NCBI GenBank assembly: GCA_040510135.1
Contig: JBEVJN010000065.1
Span: 22,070 to 86,069, forward strand
Source of the DNA: Acidimicrobiia bacterium
GTDB taxonomy: Bacteria > Actinomycetota > Acidimicrobiia > Spongiisociales > ZC4RG35
DNA length: 64,000 nucleotides
Direction of reading: 5' to 3'
Positions 3,284 through 11,888 of the stretch are shown one piece after another. The translations under genes were made by a program, and so were the position numbers. The notes below the pieces were generated by a model, which saw only the letters and a list, made by a program, of their open reading frames with translations, was not told the DNA's origin and searched no databases. The first letter of the stretch is position 1. The number at the start of each line of letters is the position of its first letter.

Positions 3284-3462
3284 GATGTATCCCTCTGCCG
3301 AGCTTTGAGCGGACTCTGATCCGACCCGTGAGCGATAACTCGGGGCGTGAATCGTCCGCTCGCCGACTCTACGCGAGGAACCCGCACCTGATGTTGAGCA
3401 GGCACCGGTGAGTTCTATACTTCCCGGGTCGCCCCGAACCTCGTCGGAATCAGCGACGTCCC

Positions 3463-3540
3463 GGGGGCGTAGAACAGCCTGGAGTGTTCGCCGGCCTGTC
3501 AAGCCGGAGGTCGCGGGTTCAAATCCCGTCGCTCCCGCCA
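3463..3540 (+). tRNA. tRNA-Asp (anticodon GTC), CCA encoded
   Basis: Folded by hand into a cloverleaf. The acceptor stem is GGGGGCG/CGCTCCC and the D stem is GAAC/GTTC. The anticodon stem is CCGGC/GCCGG with loop CTGTCAA. The T arm is GCGGG-TTCAAAT-CCCGT, followed by discriminator G and CCA. Confidence 0.9.
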
Positions 3541-3567
3541 ACCGAATCCATTTAGGGTTTGGCTGGA

Positions 3568-3640
3568 GGTCAGGTAGCTCAGTCGGTAGAGCGCCGGTCT
3601 GAAAAACCGGAGGTCGACGGATCGACGCCGTCCCTGACCA
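3568..3640 (+). tRNA. tRNA-Phe (anticodon GAA), CCA not encoded
   Basis: The acceptor stem is GGTCAGG/CCTGACC and the D arm is GCTC-AGTCGGTA-GAGC. The anticodon stem is CCGGT/ACCGG with loop CTGAAAA. The T arm is GACGG-ATCGACG-CCGTC, which puts an unusual A at position 54. The discriminator is A. Confidence 0.85.
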
Positions 3641-3797
3641 CTATTCATCCTGCTGCATGATCGCCCGAATCGCCCTGTGGCAGTTGGGGTTTTCTGCGTC
3701 GTGCCGGACGCTTGTCGACTTCGCAGCTTTCGCGAGCGGCCACCACCCAGTCTGGTGAGTCTCTGATCCGACGCCGGGATGCGTCGCAAGCGGTTCC

Positions 3798-4625
3798 CTA
3801 GCCGGGCGTCCCGTCGTGCTTCTCCTTGGCGAGCTGCTGTTGTTGCCATTCGTACACGCCGGGCAGCCAATCCTTGCCGAACGTGGCCGATGGGCCGATG
3901 CGCGGGTCATGGGGAGCATTGCCGTCGCGCAAGGCATGCACGTACGCTCGATCCTGTTTGATCCGTGCGCGTACCTGATCAGCCCCGCCGACGGACCCGT
4001 GACCGGGGATGAGAACATCAACGTCGTCCGCAACGCCCTCGAGCAGCCGCAGCCCGACGAGGTAGTCCTCAATCGGATTCGCGGCGTCCAGGTCGGGGAA
4101 CGGAATCAGGATGTCAGAAAGCATGTCACCGGCGACGAGAACGCCGCTCTCCTCGATCAACAGCGCCGCATGGCCCTGGGCATGCGCCGGATGCTCGATA
4201 ATCCGGACTTCAGGGCCATCCCAAGGAATCTGTGCAGTTTCGACAGGCAGACCGGTAATGAGGCCGAACAGGTCCAGTGGTATCTCCTCGGCGATTTCCG
4301 GCGGCAACATCTCGGCGACGCGGGCCTTCCAGTCCGCGTTCGACAGCAGGTCTCGCATCCAAGCCGCGCAGCGGGCGGTACCGTAACGGGGCGCTTCGCC
4401 AAGTTCGGCGTGCCAGAGCACGTGATCCCAATCAGGATGCGTCGAGAAGCCTGCCGAAACGGGCTGGCCCAACTCGCGAAGGTCGTTCGCTAGGCAGGCC
4501 ATTTCATCACCCTGGATTCCGGGGTCGATGAGCAACACACCGGCCCGGCCTTGCACGACAACGGCGTTGTTCTGGAGTAACTCGCTCTGGTGGATTAGCA
4601 CACCATCCGCGACCTGCTTCAGCAT
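3798..4625 (-). CDS. MBL-fold metallo-hydrolase
   Basis: 275-aa ORF with beta-lactamase-fold metal motifs (STHPDWDHV, HPAHAQGH, IPGHGS). Confidence 0.8.
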   Translation of the reverse strand: MLKQVADGVLIHQSELLQNNAVVVQGRAGVLLIDPGIQGDEMACLANDLRELGQPVSAGFSTHPDWDHVLWHAELGEAPRYGTARCAAWMRDLLSNADWKARVAEMLPPEIAEEIPLDLFGLITGLPVETAQIPWDGPEVRIIEHPAHAQGHAALLIEESGVLVAGDMLSDILIPFPDLDAANPIEDYLVGLRLLEGVADDVDVLIPGHGSVGGADQVRARIKQDRAYVHALRDGNAPHDPRIGPSATFGKDWLPGVYEWQQQQLAKEKHDGTPG

Positions 4626-4754
4626 GGGACTCCTTTCCTCCGGTCGAGTACAGGTTGGCTGGGTTCTGGTGGTGGGCGTCGAGCCCCTGGCGGTCGCGAG
4701 GTGGGTAGATCACAATCAGCGAACCTCCAAACGTGTGTGCCACTGGTGTTGTGC

Positions 4755-5627
4755 TCATGCGAGAGCCAGCGCTGCAACTGCAACGGTGCAAACTCCGATT
4801 CCCGCTCGTTGTCCGGTGCCGATCCGCTCTCCGAGCAAGCTGGCTGCAAGGAGTACGGTGATTGCGGGGTAGAGGGAGGCGAGCACCCCGGCGATGCCAA
4901 GGCTGGTCATTCCGGTGGCGACCATGAATGCGACGGTGCCCAAGGCACCGAGCACACCGGACGCGGTCCCCCAGGCGACCACGCCTCGGCGGGGACGCCA
5001 CGGCTGTTTCAGGCCCGCAGCAACCGCCAAGGTCAGGATCGCTCCCACCAGTTGGTTGGCCGCAAGCGGCAACAGACCCGCGCTATCCGAGATTTGGGCG
5101 AGTGCAACGAAAAGGATCCCGAAGCCCGCGCCCGCGAGGACGCCGTCGACGAGTGCTCCCCGCGTCGCCGCGGCCTGGTCGACGCCTACCCCTGGGCGAT
5201 CCGACGCGGGGTCGCGGGAGACCAACCAGATCCCCGAGAGCGCGGCGACCATACCGATCCAGATCAGCCAACTGGGGCCCTCACCGAGGGCTGCACCTAC
5301 CAACACCGGCAGGACCGCGGCCCCTACCGCCGAGATCGGTGCGACAAGGCCCATCTCTCCGCGGGCGAGCCCCCGGAACAAGAAGACGCTCCCGGTCGCC
5401 GAGCCGCCTCCGGCCAGGAGCGCCCATGCGAAGTCCGGCGTGGCCGGGCTACCTGGAAGCAGAAGGCCTGCTGCGAGCATGACGAGCGCTCCCGCGGCCT
5501 GGCCAACCAGAACGACCTGCCACGACGAATGCCGACGCGAGCCGGCACCGCCGATGAAGTCGGCGGTGCCGTAGGCGAGAGCCGAAGAGAATGCCAGGAG
5601 GATTCCGGGGTTCATCACGCCGAACAT
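4755..5627 (-). CDS. EamA/DMT-family transporter
   Basis: Highly hydrophobic protein with about 10 TM helices and two EamA-like halves (MFGVMNPGILLAFSSALAYGTADFIGG...). The start is taken at ATG 5627 (alternative 5615). The Arg/Pro-rich ORF-track N-terminal extension overlaps the divergent MocR gene. Confidence 0.8.
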   Translation of the reverse strand: MFGVMNPGILLAFSSALAYGTADFIGGAGSRRHSSWQVVLVGQAAGALVMLAAGLLLPGSPATPDFAWALLAGGGSATGSVFLFRGLARGEMGLVAPISAVGAAVLPVLVGAALGEGPSWLIWIGMVAALSGIWLVSRDPASDRPGVGVDQAAATRGALVDGVLAGAGFGILFVALAQISDSAGLLPLAANQLVGAILTLAVAAGLKQPWRPRRGVVAWGTASGVLGALGTVAFMVATGMTSLGIAGVLASLYPAITVLLAASLLGERIGTGQRAGIGVCTVAVAALALA

Positions 5628-5701: not shown

Positions 5702-7204
5702 ATGACGGTGGAATGGGCGCTAGGTGGCCCCGACATTCTGCTGACGCTCGACCGCAGCGCCGGTCCGATGAGAATTCAGATCCAAGATCAGTTGCGGGCG
5801 GCGATTCGGGAGAAACGAGTCGGCGCCGGAGAGCGCTTGCCGTCGACTCGACGTCTGGCCGAGCTCCTCGGCGTCTCTCGCGGCACGGTCGTCGACGTGT
5901 ACGAGCAGTTGCTGGCCGAGGGCTACGTCGAGTCGGAGGTCGGCTCCGGGACGCGTGTTGCCGCGATGCCCGCCGGATGGCCAGTCGCTCAACCGTCTGG
6001 AGTCGTCGCGACCCGGGCTTCACCCTTGTCGCTCAAACCGGTCGAGGTCGACTTCGAGTACGGCATCCCCGATCTCGGCTCGGTGCCGTTGACCGCCTGG
6101 AGTTGGGCGTTGTCGGAGGCGACGAGGACCCTGCCGACTGCCGAGTTGGGCGACGAGGAGCGGGCTGGTTCGAGGCACCTCCGAGAGGTTGTCACTGCTT
6201 ACCACCGTCGCGTTCGTTCGGGCTGCGCCGTCGCCGAGGACGCCGTCATCGTGTCCGGATTCCGCCAGGGGCTGGGTTTCGTTCTCTCGACATTGGCACA
6301 GGGCGGCATCCAGCAGATCGCGCTCGAAGATCCCGGGCCCCGCGAGCACGACGTCATCGCCCGCCGTGCGGGTCTGGACGCTGTGCCAGTTCCCGTCGAC
6401 GACCACGGACTGGACGTGGACCGCCTCCGCGCGACCGGGACCCGAGCGGTGCTGTTGACACCGGCCCACCAATGCCCCACCGGTGTCGCGCTCAGCCCGT
6501 CGCGGCGACGCGACCTGGTGGCCTGGGCGGACGAGGTCGACGGGGTGATCCTCGAGGACGACTACGACGCCGAGTTCCGATACGACCGTCAGCCGGTCGG
6601 CTCACTACAGGGCCTCAACTCGACCCGTGTGATCGCTTTGGGATCGGTCAGCAAGACGCTCGCTCCCGCGATCCGGCTCGGCTGGGTGCTCGCGCCCGCA
6701 CGGTTCATGGCTGGAATCGTCGAGGAGAAGAGACTCAGCAGTCGAGGCGCGCCTGGCCTGGACCAGGAGGCGCTCGCGCTGCTCATGGAGACGGGCCGTT
6801 TCGACCGCCACTTGCGACGCGTGCGAGAGGTCTACCGCGCCCGCCGGGACGTCCTCGCAGCCGAGGTCGAACACGCCTTCGGGCCGGGTCGATTGCAGGG
6901 GCTGGCGGCCGGCTGTCATGCCCTGCTGCGTCTTCCAAAGGGGACATCCGAGCGTGCCGTCGAGGCGACTGCGGCGAGCATGGGCGTACGTGTGAACGGG
7001 CTGGGCCATTATCGGTTGGTCGCCTCCGACTCGGAAGTCGAACCGGAGCCACGCCCGCCCGCCCTCGTGCTCGGCTTCGGGAACGTAAGCGAAGCCCAAA
7101 TCAGCAAAGGCGTCCGCAAACTCGCGGAAGCTGTTCGACACCAAACCGAGAACCAGATCGTTCGAGCCAATTCGGAGCCAGAGCTCTACCCCGTACCTGA
7201 TTAG
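5702..7204 (+). CDS. MocR/PdxR-type regulator (GntR wHTH fused to an aminotransferase-fold domain)
   Basis: The N-terminal GntR HTH is LPSTRRLAELLGVSRGTVVDVYEQLLAEGY. The C-terminal fold-type I aminotransferase domain carries SVSKTLAPAIRLGW. Divergent to an EamA exporter, which is a typical pairing. Confidence 0.85.
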   Translation: MTVEWALGGPDILLTLDRSAGPMRIQIQDQLRAAIREKRVGAGERLPSTRRLAELLGVSRGTVVDVYEQLLAEGYVESEVGSGTRVAAMPAGWPVAQPSGVVATRASPLSLKPVEVDFEYGIPDLGSVPLTAWSWALSEATRTLPTAELGDEERAGSRHLREVVTAYHRRVRSGCAVAEDAVIVSGFRQGLGFVLSTLAQGGIQQIALEDPGPREHDVIARRAGLDAVPVPVDDHGLDVDRLRATGTRAVLLTPAHQCPTGVALSPSRRRDLVAWADEVDGVILEDDYDAEFRYDRQPVGSLQGLNSTRVIALGSVSKTLAPAIRLGWVLAPARFMAGIVEEKRLSSRGAPGLDQEALALLMETGRFDRHLRRVREVYRARRDVLAAEVEHAFGPGRLQGLAAGCHALLRLPKGTSERAVEATAASMGVRVNGLGHYRLVASDSEVEPEPRPPALVLGFGNVSEAQISKGVRKLAEAVRHQTENQIVRANSEPELYPVPD

Positions 7205-7260
7205 CAGGAGGCAATCGGGGTCCAAAAATTGGACGTATCGGCGCGGGATCTTGGATTTGT

Positions 7261-7288
7261 TTGACGTGGAAGCACCAGGACATAGCCT
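7261..7288 (+). promoter_or_regulatory. Candidate sigma-70-type promoter for the lysyl-oxidase gene
   Basis: TTGACG (7261-7266), 16 nt, then TAGCCT (7283-7288), which fits TANNNT. It lies about 40 nt upstream of ATG 7330, which is preceded by GGGGGAG. Confidence 0.35.
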
Positions 7289-7329
7289 GTGGCATCAGGT
7301 AGGGAACGCGACAGAGTCGGGGGAGATGC

Positions 7330-8115
7330 ATGAAGCCAGCACGCCGGCTCCGTCGGCCGATCGAGGTTGGTTTGGCCTTCCTGGTCCTCGTTTTGGCAGC
7401 TTGTGGGGGCTTTCCAGAGATCACCGAGCCCGTCGGCACCCCGCTGCTCCCAGACTTGGTTGCGGAGCCTCCGGTCGATCTTCGAGTCACCAGACTCGAC
7501 GACGGAACTCTCGAAGCTCGATTCAGCTCCACGTTGGTCAACGTAGGTGACGGAGACTTCGCCCTACGGGCGAGTCGCGAAACGGGCGACTGGGCTGTCA
7601 TTCAGGAAATCTGGTACTCCGAGAGCGGGGCGGAACTCCGCGCGTCGAGCGCAGAGCTGGCCTTTGCCGGGGACGGACATGAGCACTGGCATGTGCGACG
7701 CGTGGCCGGATACAGCCTCGTTCCATTGGATAGCTCGGGAAGTCCGGTGGAGAACGCGCCGGAGCGCACCGATGCCAAGATCGGCTTCTGTTTCTACGAC
7801 CACACTCACTCGATGGGCTTTGGCGACGAAGACCCCCGATTCGACGTACACGAGTGCGGAGAGGAGAACGCCACCGAGATTCGGATGGGTTTGTCCCCGG
7901 GGTGGGCCGATGTCTATGGGTTCAATCTGCCGGGCCAATCCATCGATATCACCGACCTCCCGGACGGGGCCTACCGAATCTGGGCGGAGGCAGATGCCGA
8001 AGGGTGGTTCGAAGAGTCGAACAAGGAGAACAACACAACCTGGATCGACTTCGAACTCACTACCGACGGGGAGAACCGTTTCGCCATGGTCACCGAAGTG
8101 GGGCCCGAACCCTGA
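7330..8115 (+). CDS. Lysyl-oxidase (LOX) family copper amine oxidase homolog, lipoprotein
   Basis: Lipobox LVLAAC|GG. The His cluster GHEHWH, KIGFCFYDHTH and GWADVYGFNLPGQSIDITDLPDG align with the metazoan LOX copper site and the LTQ Lys/Tyr segments (KASFCLEDT / DTYGADIDCQWIDITDV). Confidence 0.8.
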   Translation: MKPARRLRRPIEVGLAFLVLVLAACGGFPEITEPVGTPLLPDLVAEPPVDLRVTRLDDGTLEARFSSTLVNVGDGDFALRASRETGDWAVIQEIWYSESGAELRASSAELAFAGDGHEHWHVRRVAGYSLVPLDSSGSPVENAPERTDAKIGFCFYDHTHSMGFGDEDPRFDVHECGEENATEIRMGLSPGWADVYGFNLPGQSIDITDLPDGAYRIWAEADAEGWFEESNKENNTTWIDFELTTDGENRFAMVTEVGPEP

Positions 8116-8234
8116 TTCGACCTTGCGGAGCCCCTCGACCGCGGAGATTTCTTGACCACTCTCCGCGTTCTTGGTGTAGAGTTTTCCCCAAGCCCACTGA
8201 CCGTGGGGAGGAATAGAGGAAGGGTTGGGGAACC

Positions 8235-8591
8235 ATGAAGAGACGCCTTATCGCGCTCTCGCTCGCGCTGGGACTGTCGGTCGCTCTGATGATCCCGGCA
8301 GGTGCTGCGGACCTACATGAGCCGCACACGAACCTGACGTTTGACTGTGAAGGAACAGTCATCCTTCATTTCGTGAACAACCAGACGGGAGGAGCGGCAG
8401 CAGCCAACATCACGGTCTGGCTCAACGGCGGAGCGACGACCATCGTGGATGGCCCGACAAAGGTCCTCAAGAACGTCCAGCAGTACTACATCCCCATCGA
8501 CGGGGGTGACACTCTCACGGACGCGTCTACTCCGCTTGCCGGCATGCTCGTGCTCTCAGATTGGGAGTGCGCGCACGACAAGAAGAAGTAG
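8235..8591 (+). CDS. Small secreted protein, unknown function, C-terminal HDKKK tail
   Basis: 118 aa with a signal peptide (MKRRLIALSLALGLSVALMIPAGA|AD), two Cys and a Lys-rich C-terminus. A strong hairpin follows the gene. Confidence 0.65.
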   Translation: MKRRLIALSLALGLSVALMIPAGAADLHEPHTNLTFDCEGTVILHFVNNQTGGAAAANITVWLNGGATTIVDGPTKVLKNVQQYYIPIDGGDTLTDASTPLAGMLVLSDWECAHDKKK

Positions 8592-8623
8592 CAGCGGCTT
8601 GGGGCACCAACGCCCATGACAAC

Positions 8624-8655
8624 AAGTGGGCCCCCGGAGTTCCGGGGGCCCACTT
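8624..8655. terminator. Bidirectional intrinsic-terminator-like hairpin
   Basis: AAGTGGGCCCCCGG (8624-8637), loop AGTT, then CCGGGGGCCCACTT (8642-8655), a 14-bp perfect stem. It lies between convergent genes ending at 8591 (+) and 8695 (-). Confidence 0.75.
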
Positions 8656-8694
8656 CGTTGGTTGTCGTGAGGCGTGGCCGAGATCCGATCCTGG

Positions 8695-10191
8695 CTAGAT
8701 CAGACCGTTACTCCACGGCCCCCAGATGGCGTAAGTAATGCCGTTGGCTTGCATGTTGGCATAGAGCACCTGACCCCCGGGCCCAAAGGTTGCTCCGGAG
8801 AACTCGTCGACCCCGCTTGCCACATTGTTCAGGGCGAAGTCGAATATGAGCCCGTCCCTCGTCAGGGCGCGGAGCATGTTGCCCGCCGAACTGTCCTCAC
8901 AGAGGATCACGCTCTTGCGACGTGGTGAAACAGTGATGTTGTCAGGGAAATCGAGAACATCCGGCCCCGGTGACTCGAACACCAGGGTCAATGTCTCATT
9001 GGTGATGTCGTACATCCAGACCTGGCCATACCCGCCACCGAAGCCTGCGCTCCCGTTGGGGGGTGGATCCGAGTCGAAGGGGCCGCCTCCCTCCGTAGAG
9101 ACGAAGAAGATCTTCCCGTCGAAGTAGTCCATCCCCTCCAGGCGAGAGAATCGGGCCCCCCCTTTTGACTCCCCCTCCTGGAAGACCACGCGTGCCGCTT
9201 CGTCGTTGCTCAGGCCAGGCGCGAATTCGGGGTCGGGAACCTCGATTGGGATCCAAGCGACTCGATAGGTGGTTCCTGGAGCCTGGTCGGCGTGAAGATC
9301 CATGGTCACCGGTTCGGAGGCGCCGGGAGGAATCACGCCCAGGATCTGCAAAGCACCTCCATCGGCAATCCGCTTGTCCTCGTCAGGCCGATTGGGCGGG
9401 CGGTAGCGGTAGAAACCCGATGCATATGCGAAGTCGTCCTCCGTCATGTACACATCGCCAGTTCCCGGGTCGACGGCGGCGGCCTCGTGAGCGAAGCGCC
9501 CAGCCGCGACGATCGGATCGGCGACCTCCAGCTCACCGGGTCCGCGCGAGACCGGGACCTCGAACAGGTAGCCGTGTTTCTGGGTGTAGGTGAGATCGTC
9601 CGGGTCATTGGGCCCGATCAGGAAGCTGCGCTGCTGGTCCACCCCATTAGGAGTTTCTTCGCAGGTCAGCCAGGTCCCCCACGGGCTGGCGCCACCGGCA
9701 CAGTTGAAGGTTGTGCCATTGAGGCTCACCCAACTGCTGACCGCGTCGGCGGTCGGGGAGATCTCCAGCGTGGTGGTGCCCCCAGGAGCGGCAGGATCGT
9801 AGGCATGGCCGAGGTCCCCGAAGGCGCCCACCGGATTCGGCTGGGTCTGCTCGTGATTCCGAACGATCCGAACCTTCCCTTGTTTCCAGGAGAACACGGC
9901 CATCCCGTCATGACGACCAGGAGTCAAAGTCGCCTCTTCGGTCAGCGGAGTGTTCCGGACCCCGAACGACCGATACTGGAAGCCCTCCGGCAGGAACAAG
10001 CGCTCCACGCCGTCCCGCAGGTCGCGCACAGCAACGAGCGGACCATAACCCCCGTTCTGTGCGGCGAACTTGGGCCCTGCATTGGCAGCGCGGGCGGACA
10101 AACCAACGAACGGCCCCACGGTGGAACCGAGAGTCGCGACGACCACGGCGGCACTCTTCTGCAAGAAGTCGCGACGGCTGATGGCGGCCAT
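8695..10191 (-). CDS. Tat-exported PhoX-like / DUF839 family protein (putative phosphatase)
   Basis: 498 aa with the twin-arginine signal MAAISRRDFLQKSAAVVVATLG. The body resembles the DUF839/PhoX beta-propeller family. Confidence 0.7.
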   Translation of the reverse strand: MAAISRRDFLQKSAAVVVATLGSTVGPFVGLSARAANAGPKFAAQNGGYGPLVAVRDLRDGVERLFLPEGFQYRSFGVRNTPLTEEATLTPGRHDGMAVFSWKQGKVRIVRNHEQTQPNPVGAFGDLGHAYDPAAPGGTTTLEISPTADAVSSWVSLNGTTFNCAGGASPWGTWLTCEETPNGVDQQRSFLIGPNDPDDLTYTQKHGYLFEVPVSRGPGELEVADPIVAAGRFAHEAAAVDPGTGDVYMTEDDFAYASGFYRYRPPNRPDEDKRIADGGALQILGVIPPGASEPVTMDLHADQAPGTTYRVAWIPIEVPDPEFAPGLSNDEAARVVFQEGESKGGARFSRLEGMDYFDGKIFFVSTEGGGPFDSDPPPNGSAGFGGGYGQVWMYDITNETLTLVFESPGPDVLDFPDNITVSPRRKSVILCEDSSAGNMLRALTRDGLIFDFALNNVASGVDEFSGATFGPGGQVLYANMQANGITYAIWGPWSNGLI

Positions 10192-10760: not shown

Positions 10761-11888
10761 ATGGCCCGAGCCAATCGCCGCAGCGGGCGTCTCAGCTGGC
10801 TGGGAATTGTCTCGCTACTCGTCGTGACCGGAGCCTCGGTGGCCGTTGCACAGGAGACCCAGCTCGGCGGCAAGATCCAGTCGGGGAGCCAGATCACCAT
10901 CTCGGCCGATGAGACGGTCGATGGAGACCTCTATGCATCGGGGGGGCGGGTCCTCATCGAAGGCAGAGTGGATGGTGACGTGATCGCGGCAGCCGGCCAG
11001 GTGACCATCTCGGGTGACGTCAGCGGCGACCTCATGGCATCGGGCGGAGCGATAGACATCTCGGGAGAGGTCGGGGGCGATGCGAGGGTGGCCGCAGGAC
11101 AGACTTCCGTGAGCGGATCGATCGGCGAAGACCTGTTCGTCGCGTCGGGACAGACCACCATCTCGGATTCGGGCGAGGTGGGAGAGGATCTGGTGTTCGG
11201 GAGTGGTCGGATGACGATGAACGGGACGGTCGGCGGTGACGTGCTCGGCGCCGCTGGTGACTACGACCGCCAGGGGACCGTCATGGGGACCGAGGACGTG
11301 ACGATCCGGGAGGTCGAAGTTCCCACCACCGCCGATCGGATCGTGGACGCGCTGCAGCGGTTCATCAGCCTCCTTCTGGTCGCCGCACTATTCCTCTGGC
11401 TCGCGCCCCGGAGTGTCGAGGAACCCACTCTGATGCTGAGGCAGAGGCCTTGGACGTCTCTCGGGATCGGGTTCGTCGGTGTGATCGCGTTCGGTGTCGT
11501 CGTCTTTCTGGTGATCGTGGTGGCGGTCCTGCTGGCCATCGGCGTGGGGCTGGTGGGACTCAGCGATCTGGCCGGAACGATCATCTTCGCCGGCCTGGTG
11601 GCGGTCGCGGTGCTGGCCTTCCTTTTCTTCCTCGCCACCGTCTTCGGCGCACCCGCCTGGGTCGGCATGGCGCTGGTGAGCATCGGTCTCTCGTTGAACT
11701 CGACGGCACGTCGCTGGGTTGCCCTGATCATCGGCCTGGCCGTCGTCGTGGCGCTGACTTCGATTCCTGTCGCGGGTGGCTGGATCGGCCTCCTCGTCGC
11801 CCTATTCGGACTGGGCGCGGGAATCCTCGCTTTCCTCCCTCGCAGAACGACGCCAGTGTCGGTCGAACCATCTGGCATGTCGACTTGA
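10761..11888 (+). CDS. Membrane protein with bactofilin-like (polymer-forming cytoskeletal) repeat domain
   Basis: Has an N-terminal signal/anchor, then about 10 tandem ~19-aa G-D/E-hydrophobic repeats (GDVIAAAGQVTISGDVSGDLMASGGAIDISGEVGGDARVAAGQTSVSG...). The C-terminus has 4-5 TM helices. Confidence 0.65.
   Translation: MARANRRSGRLSWLGIVSLLVVTGASVAVAQETQLGGKIQSGSQITISADETVDGDLYASGGRVLIEGRVDGDVIAAAGQVTISGDVSGDLMASGGAIDISGEVGGDARVAAGQTSVSGSIGEDLFVASGQTTISDSGEVGEDLVFGSGRMTMNGTVGGDVLGAAGDYDRQGTVMGTEDVTIREVEVPTTADRIVDALQRFISLLLVAALFLWLAPRSVEEPTLMLRQRPWTSLGIGFVGVIAFGVVVFLVIVVAVLLAIGVGLVGLSDLAGTIIFAGLVAVAVLAFLFFLATVFGAPAWVGMALVSIGLSLNSTARRWVALIIGLAVVVALTSIPVAGGWIGLLVALFGLGAGILAFLPRRTTPVSVEPSGMST

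Follow-up and report, generated by a model that had tools for sequence, protein, structure and literature searches.

What does a bacterial lysyl oxidase (LOX) act on? This question is raised by a locus in the window analysed here, by which we mean the whole stretch of 64,000 nucleotides from an Acidimicrobiia bacterium (contig JBEVJN010000065.1, positions 22,070 to 86,069). In this window, a LOX gene is followed on the same (+) strand, after a gap of 119 nucleotides, by a gene for a small secreted protein that ends in three lysines, and the host assembly (2.58 Mb in 99 contigs) contains a single copy of each. The original prediction read the first gene as a LOX homologue with the residues of the lysine tyrosylquinone (LTQ) cofactor and speculated that the second might encode its substrate or partner. 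Here we found that the small gene adjoins LOX genes of two separate clades and that lysines in the tail of the small protein occur only in copies linked with LOX. The LOX and the small protein very likely form a functional pair, and the comparisons single out the small protein as a candidate natural substrate of a bacterial LOX, the first good one so far. The elements of the locus, numbered by their position in the window, are as follows.

7330 to 8115, + strand: LOX gene, a lipoprotein of 261 amino acids (open reading frame; Pfam PF01186 above cut-off; LOXL2 fold match; 227 homologues)
7330 to 7404, + strand: signal peptide and lipobox with Cys25 as the predicted lipidated residue (...VLVLAAC-GG, read by eye)
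7678 to 7692, + strand: His117-x-His119-x-His121, predicted copper-binding triad (invariant; aligned to CHRHYH of LOXL2)
7777 to 7779, + strand: Lys150, predicted LTQ lysine (invariant; aligned to the Lys of KASFCLED in LOXL2)
7915 to 7917, + strand: Tyr196, predicted LTQ tyrosine (invariant; aligned to the Tyr of DMYRH in LOXL2)
8116 to 8234, + strand: intergenic spacer of 119 nucleotides (sequence; spacer alignment of the closest relatives)
8235 to 8591, + strand: gene of the small secreted partner, 118 amino acids (open reading frame; 27 close homologues; predicted model all-beta)
8235 to 8309, + strand: Sec-type signal peptide, about residues 1 to 25, ...PAGAA|D (read from the sequence)
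8367 to 8387, + strand: HFVNNQT motif, residues 45 to 51, the family signature (H45, F46, N48 and Q50 invariant in 69 sequences)
8571 to 8588, + strand: C-terminal tail AHDKKK after Cys112, with the proposed LOX target lysines (correlation between tail and LOX; lower model confidence)
8624 to 8655, + strand: terminator hairpin closing the two-gene unit (fold energy; the phoX gene converges on the hairpin)

The gene sizes, the gap and the position of the hairpin behind the small gene had all been given correctly, as the sequence confirms, and the open reading frame of the small protein has the signal peptide, exactly two cysteines (C38 and C112) and the C terminus ...WECAHDKKK that had been ascribed to it. 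The LOX motifs quoted at the time are present as well (GDGHEHWH, DAKIGFCFYD, and the Tyr-containing segment GWADVYGFNLPGQSIDITD, also given as DVYGFNLPGQSIDITD).

The enzyme matches the Pfam family PF01186 (Lysyl_oxidase) over residues 150 to 244 with 31.4 bits against a gathering cut-off of 20.4 (E value 1.9e-7), and several of its 227 homologues carry the NCBI name 'lysyl oxidase family protein'. In an alignment of 32 homologues, H117, H119, H121, K150, C154, C176 and Y196 are invariant, and C25 and G26 of the lipobox (LAAC, in LVLAAC at residues 20 to 25) are at least 90% conserved; with this conserved lipobox cysteine the LOX is a predicted bacterial lipoprotein. The original prediction had staked its reading on a proper alignment of the LTQ-forming residues. 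Human LOXL2 is the sole match among PDB sequences and it is weak (phmmer E value 0.67), but the cofactor motifs aligned all the same, with GHEHWH on CHRHYH and K150 and Y196 on the LOXL2 lysine and tyrosine. We take the LOXL2 motifs KASFCLED and DMYRH to be those in which Lys653 and Tyr689 of LTQ sit. These two LTQ residues are named in PMC9694262. The AlphaFold model of the LOX has a mean predicted local distance difference test score (pLDDT) of 89.4. When this model was compared with the PDB by Foldseek, the only significant match was to human LOXL2 (5ze3_A; E value 2.7e-8), and VIA-align gave a Z score of 17.1 for the same chain, with a root mean square deviation of 2.5 Å over 178 residues, compared to 8.2 for the next chain. 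The aligned span, residues 38 to 261 of the model on residues 545 to 750 of 5ze3_A, means that the mature domain can be superposed in its full length on the catalytic domain of LOXL2. Because the PF01186 match is above cut-off, the catalytic residues are invariant and the fold matches that of LOXL2, the window's LOX is a genuine LOX-family member with intact cofactor residues. Taken alone, it is nothing out of the ordinary within this bacterial family, which is large and has long had its name. The idea that a lysine of the small protein forms LTQ in trans was rejected, because the LOX retains its own invariant K150.

It is the second gene that makes the locus unusual, since synteny of the small gene with LOX, which had been named as a check on the speculation, is found in each of three surveys: at 40 of 50 genome loci, in four of four orthologues of the window's class and at 30 of 33 metagenome loci. 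The scan from the side of the small protein took one genome per species (50 loci), and the LOX profile was run on six-frame open reading frames. At the 40 loci, the LOX gene is directly adjacent on the same strand, lying directly upstream at 19 (Acidimicrobiia, Gaiellaceae, Nocardioides and Jiangella) and directly downstream at 21 (Variovorax, other Burkholderiales, Gammaproteobacteria, Nitrospira and Methylomirabilota). Two further loci have a LOX nearby, either 4.4 kb upstream (L056) or divergent (L079, Vicinamibacterales), and no LOX was present at eight, one of which (L081) is cut by a contig end. The adjacency spans at least five phyla, namely Actinomycetota, Pseudomonadota, Nitrospirota, Methylomirabilota and Acidobacteriota. 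The class to which the window belongs was sampled with 401 genomes, of which 8 carry the small protein, 15 show a LOX-like match of any kind and 4 have an orthologous LOX (E value below 1e-110), each of these 4 with the small gene just downstream. In metagenomes, where the scan was run from the side of the LOX, the LOX scores of 80 loci were bimodal, and a locus was assessable if it had at least 450 nucleotides downstream. The window's own LOX clade accounted for 38 loci, of which 33 were assessable and 30 had the small gene downstream, and a paralogous clade accounted for 42, of which 28 were assessable and none had it. At two loci of this paralogous clade (L124 and L164) the LOX is duplicated in tandem, with a second LOX-like open reading frame directly downstream.

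The partner LOX comes in two types. The lipoprotein type has about 260 amino acids and the gene order is LOX, then small gene. The second type, of about 340 amino acids, starts with a plain signal peptide and ends in an IPT/TIG domain, and here the small gene precedes the LOX; it retains HNHFH, KTTFC and GDTYG, and the Gram-negative partner LOX matches PF01186 with an E value of 1.8e-15. On a FastTree of 140 LOX domains, midpoint-rooted and with long-branch warnings, each of the two types has a clade of its own (support 96 and 92), and LOX clades without the link fall between the two. A link shared by both LOX clades, by two architectures and by either order of the genes is functional rather than inherited synteny. 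Clustering of the open reading frames at the 50 loci found no further gene common to both gene orders, and the flanks of the actinobacterial loci are unrelated to each other. Besides LOX, the only recurring neighbours are DsbA-like genes, at 6 loci, and LuxR-type regulators, at 10, both confined to the diderm-type loci. Two candidate fusions were rejected: P0148, the only protein from a search for longer forms, is a frameshifted read-through from the C terminus of a LOX into the small gene, and P0012, encoded on a contig of 1010 bp, in which a LOX lipoprotein signal peptide runs directly into the small protein, looks like a chimeric artefact of assembly or gene calling. A locus from a bin labelled Acidobacteriota (L034) has a LOX 97% identical and a small protein 81% identical to those of the window, probably through a binning or label error, and the tail of its small gene shows a frameshift against those of related loci.

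The small protein has no match in Pfam, NCBIfam or the PDB sequences, and a search of the ESM Atlas returned only unnamed clusters. It has 27 close homologues, and a profile search of 1.84 billion representatives gave 395 clusters with an E value of 0.001 or lower, 197 of them at 1e-10 or lower, almost all with 100 to 190 amino acids. The family is recognized by the HFVNNQT signature, together with NxQH and LPGxLVLSD(F/W/Y)xC. Across 69 sequences C38, H45, F46, N48, Q50, L94, G103, L105 and S108 are invariant and C112 is at least 90% conserved, and the A-x-A region of the signal peptide is conserved in two family alignments. The predicted model (pLDDT 83, predicted template modelling score 0.71) is a seven-stranded all-beta domain in which the pLDDT averages 74 over the last residues, less than in the core. 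Foldseek found nothing in the PDB at an E value of 0.001 or better for this model, and in a wide VIA-align search the best Z score was 6.1, for generic jelly-roll, C1q-like, BclA and CBM35 domains. As this lies under the noise level of the tool, about 8, we assigned no fold family; the model suggests a beta-sandwich head with a short lysine tail and without a clear fold match.

The tails of this family differ according to the presence of LOX. At least one lysine after the last cysteine was present in all 72 LOX-linked copies with a readable tail and in none of the 8 LOX-less copies (L038, L039, L043, L054, L061, L062, L074 and L007, of which L062 is identical to L061), whose tails are poly-Pro, Pro-Thr repeats, DPYYPY or Gly/Asp-rich. 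Next to a lipoprotein LOX the tails read, for example, AHDKKK, EDSKKK, AKKK, NPKKDDPKK or GKKGKK, and next to a TIG-type LOX the lysines are placed between two cysteines, as in KEPPPCDPKKEICK. Such lysines in Cys-x-Cys loops of the diderm-type tails fit the DsbA-like neighbour gene. All four LOX-less carriers in the class sample lack a LOX match anywhere in their genomes, and of five further LOX-less carriers, three genomes are without any LOX and the other two encode a distant LOX only, at another site that has no small gene next to it. The contrast also exists within taxa: in Gaiellaceae (L075 versus L039), in Acidobacteriota (L079 versus L054 and L074) and in family f3 of the window's class (G158 versus G399). 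Among the 147 best representatives, 97 tails have lysine, 21 are lysine free, 1 protein has no tail and 28 were not parsed by the pattern, several of these visibly ending in lysine. The substrate speculation gains a specific comparative signal from the finding that tail lysines are confined to LOX-linked copies. In four members from Nitrospira and Methylomirabilota (L055, L059, L064 and L069) an extra Cys-rich acidic module of the type CGDxIDNDCDGxIDE stands before the final lysine, which presumably resembles the MopE/thrombospondin-type-3 calcium-binding repeats.

The same head domain can also have quite different C termini. In L008, an N-terminal head is followed by a Ser-rich stalk, an SdrD_B domain (E value 7.8e-29) and LPFTG with a hydrophobic segment and basic residues behind it, and P0267 has an N-terminal head, a Thr-rich stalk and LPETG, again with a hydrophobic segment and basic residues. 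Since both proteins carry sortase sorting signals, we read the head as a surface-displayed module whose C terminus serves as a variable attachment device, a sortase signal in some lineages and a lysine tail in all cases with a LOX encoded alongside. About seven repeats of a Thr-rich KPDPK unit form the tail of P0220, as might be expected of a cross-linking substrate. One LOX-less copy, in L054 (Terriglobales; 5887 to 6318), lies divergent to a copper radical oxidase gene (3287 to 5494, - strand) that is galactose-oxidase/glyoxal-oxidase-like, with Kelch repeats and a GO E-set domain; this is one case only.

How could the two proteins work together? On balance, we think it probable that the LOX oxidizes tail lysines to allysine and so cross-links or anchors the small protein covalently. 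The membrane-tethered LOX lipoprotein would be an LTQ-using copper amine oxidase, and the small protein, exported via Sec, would present a compact, disulfide-pinned beta-sandwich head with a flexible lysine-bearing tail. Oxidative deamination of the epsilon-amino group of at least one tail lysine by the LOX would give allysine with release of H2O2 and NH3, and this aldehyde would then condense spontaneously with a nearby amine or with a second allysine. The head would thereby be fixed covalently, either to other copies, giving a protein layer joined by cross-links, or to some amine in the cell envelope, a route analogous to sortase anchoring yet independent of sortase. We put forward cross-linking to envelope components as a hypothesis. 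LOX membership and the catalytic residues, the pairing with two LOX clades, the restriction of tail lysines and the alternative sortase C termini are the observations on which the proposal stands. From the sequences we infer the oxidation step, the identity of the acceptor and a physiological role of the head. The wider claim, that in at least five phyla a LOX fixes a dedicated small surface protein via allysine, as a sortase-independent oxidative anchoring or matrix cross-linking system, we would put at slightly less than an even chance.

Animal LOX enzymes act on the lysines of collagen telopeptides and elastin, and we take the paired tail lysines (KK...KK) in flexible segments to resemble the cross-linking domains of elastin. 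The chemistry proposed here is the same as that of the animal enzymes, peptidyl lysine being converted to allysine and then to spontaneous cross-links, and the window's LOX shares with LOX and LOXL1-4, as represented by LOXL2 (5ze3), the PF01186 catalytic domain, the fold, the His triad and the LTQ Lys and Tyr. It differs in being only 261 amino acids long, lipid anchored and without SRCR (scavenger receptor cysteine-rich) or propeptide domains. Its mature domain has only two cysteines (C154 and C176), whereas animal LOX has five disulfides. The candidate substrate is a globular protein of 90 amino acids encoded next door and not a fibrous matrix protein. As in sortase/LPxTG anchoring, a C-terminal appendage would direct the covalent fixation of a secreted head, and the two members of the small-protein family with LPFTG or LPETG signals bear these instead of lysine tails. 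In contrast to sortase anchoring, the chemistry would be an oxidative aldehyde condensation rather than a transpeptidation, with no sortase involved, and diderm (Gram-negative-type) phyla have the LOX module too.

A catalogue of bacterial LOX genes dates from 2015 (Grau-Bove et al., PMC4448552), and the native function of HTU-LOX from Haloterrigena turkmenica has been called cryptic (PMC6452851). In the parts of these two papers available to us, no physiological substrate is given for a prokaryotic LOX and the function is left open; the words 'operon' and 'neighbo' occur in neither of them. The prokaryotic LOX-domain proteins share with the window's LOX a simple architecture (a LOX domain with a signal peptide) and the conserved catalytic residues, and what sets the present case apart from those described is that a specific conserved partner gene is identified. 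A full-text search, with subscription journals outside its coverage, found no report of a partner or substrate gene of a prokaryotic LOX; as far as we found in the literature, the conserved module of a LOX and a lysine-tailed head protein is undescribed.

The spacer and the terminator bear on how the two genes may be expressed. The hairpin behind the small gene has 14 pairs, 11 of them G-C, with a folding energy of -45.3 kcal/mol (z score -6.8; 0 of 200 shuffles fold as well), and the U-tract behind it is weak. The spacer between the genes has no terminator-like fold (z score 0.58), and at 19 actinobacterial loci spacers measure 83 to 258 nucleotides, with a median of 148. In the window's spacer, there is a candidate promoter of the small gene (-35 TTGACC at 8152 to 8157, -10 TAGAGT at 8177 to 8182), as well as a short 5' hairpin and a purine-rich ribosome-binding site, and the spacer alignment shows that these elements are kept in the closest relatives while the flanks diverge. 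A sigma-70 consensus scan found no promoter, and an Rfam search of 6900 to 8900 gave no match. The conserved spacer elements suggest that the small gene has its own promoter besides possible read-through, which would suit a stoichiometric substrate produced in excess over its enzyme. Contigs from four soil RNA libraries cover the LOX from 7818 to 8134 (one run) and the small gene from 8247 to 8615 (three runs), mostly at 99% identity or more. Two such contigs of run X18 end at 8614 and 8615, just before the hairpin, which in this one run hints weakly at a 3' end.

Several points weigh against an enzyme and its substrate. On a core-domain tree from which the tails were excluded, LOX state equals Lys-tail state in 70 of 70 rows, but these rows are not independent, as the best trees need 5 to 6 joint changes and bootstrap trees 4 to 5; none of the 200 bootstrap trees permits a single change. 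The well-supported branches force only 1 or 2 changes, the small-protein alignment having 81 usable columns, and because of the few contrasts on supported branches an independent-contrast test is unable to reach significance. The correlation between tail and LOX is therefore not phylogenetically secured and comes down to only 4 to 5 independent contrasts. At 3 of the 33 assessable loci of the same LOX clade (L115, L117 and L118) the small gene is absent, and many other LOX clades are without such a partner, so LOX must have other substrates too. No contig of the RNA libraries, in which DNA carry-over is possible, bridges both genes. A basic C terminus could also simply bind an anionic wall. 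Finally, the invariant polar and His motif of the head (H45, N48, Q50, Q82 and H83) could bind metal, and the copper-oxidase neighbour in L054 fits the idea of a metallochaperone.

The last two points lead to the main rival explanation, that the small protein is a caddie or metallochaperone that aids LOX maturation, by copper delivery or LTQ biogenesis, with its tail lysines docking as a substrate mimic. The Streptomyces caddie MelC1 inserts tyrosine into the tyrosinase MelC2, and the helpers of MelC1/MelC2 and of Marinomonas LodA/LodB act in metallation or cofactor biogenesis. In these systems, too, a copper or quinone oxidase shares a two-gene operon with a small dedicated helper, although the families are unrelated, and the tight linkage of our two genes would be expected of a caddie. 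A caddie also predicts lysine tails only in the company of LOX, but the multi-lysine repeat tail of P0220 fits a cross-linking substrate better. The head offers possible metal ligands in the invariant His45, the nearly invariant His83 and an LHxxH motif with which many members begin, but this last motif is not confined to LOX-linked copies. The comparison of the small protein with known families and folds, which gave no sequence match and no fold match above the noise line, speaks neither for nor against a metallochaperone. The L054 copy beside a copper enzyme would suit a copper chaperone; a dedicated one would, however, not be expected to persist in genomes without any LOX or to top sortase-anchored stalk proteins, as the head does. 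The partner also differs from MelC1 and LodB in having its own signal peptide and in existing without the oxidase in other genomes, and both of our proteins have export signals of their own, unlike MelC1/MelC2. Altogether, we consider a caddie role unlikely.

Less likely still are a scaffold or inhibitor role and mere co-regulation. As a non-substrate partner, the small protein would attach to LOX by its basic tail and act as a targeting, scaffold or inhibitory subunit, steering or restraining the enzyme toward another substrate, for example a different envelope protein or an amine that is free or bound to peptidoglycan. Such a subunit would account for the conserved adjacency, and for a tail that covaries with the type of LOX, short KK beside the lipoprotein and Cys-loop K beside the TIG type. 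However, no conserved third gene was found whose product might be the real substrate, and the actinobacterial flanks differ; moreover, LOX enzymes act on peptidyl lysine, and the simplest reading of a lysine requirement in the partner is that the enzyme attacks there. This alternative therefore seems quite improbable to us. The two might also be mere co-regulated neighbours that do not interact directly, each an envelope protein in its own right and the pair simply travelling together. This would agree with the candidate promoter before the small gene, the fairly long spacers and the three same-clade LOX loci without the small gene, but we consider it very improbable, as chance or hitch-hiking predicts neither an adjacency that extends to two LOX clades, both gene orders and no fewer than five phyla, nor the loss of tail lysines exactly where LOX is absent.

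If the small protein is oxidized by its neighbour as proposed, prokaryotic LOX enzymes would have, in the HFVNNQT-motif protein, their first known physiological substrate, and LOX-driven extracellular cross-linking of proteins would predate animals as a working system and not merely as an enzyme fold. It would also represent a new bacterial way of building or anchoring surface proteins. The linked lysine-tailed partner makes the function of a bacterial LOX directly testable with two small proteins, both of which are available from cultured strains of Nocardioides, Jiangella, Variovorax and Methylibium. Such a pair would, if confirmed, be a minimal soluble enzyme-substrate system for work on LOX mechanism and inhibitors and a compact tag-and-enzyme system for site-specific formation of protein aldehydes.

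Upstream of the two genes (5702 to 7204, + strand) lies a MocR-type regulator of the GntR/aminotransferase-fold kind, as identified with Pfam and NCBIfam, and downstream (8695 to 10191, - strand) a convergent gene encodes a PhoX alkaline phosphatase with a twin-arginine translocation (Tat) signal (PF05787, E value 5e-58; TIGR01409). By clustering of open reading frames and comparison of flanks, neither was found to be kept beside the module in other genomes. The remaining content of the window is ordinary chromosome, for example glutamine synthetase and purine synthesis genes. An open reading frame of 375 amino acids (10761 to 11888, + strand) has no Pfam match and a signal-like N-terminal segment; it contains about 130 residues of Gly/Asp-rich repeats of the (G)D(V/L)xxxGG type, and its C-terminal half consists of several hydrophobic segments.

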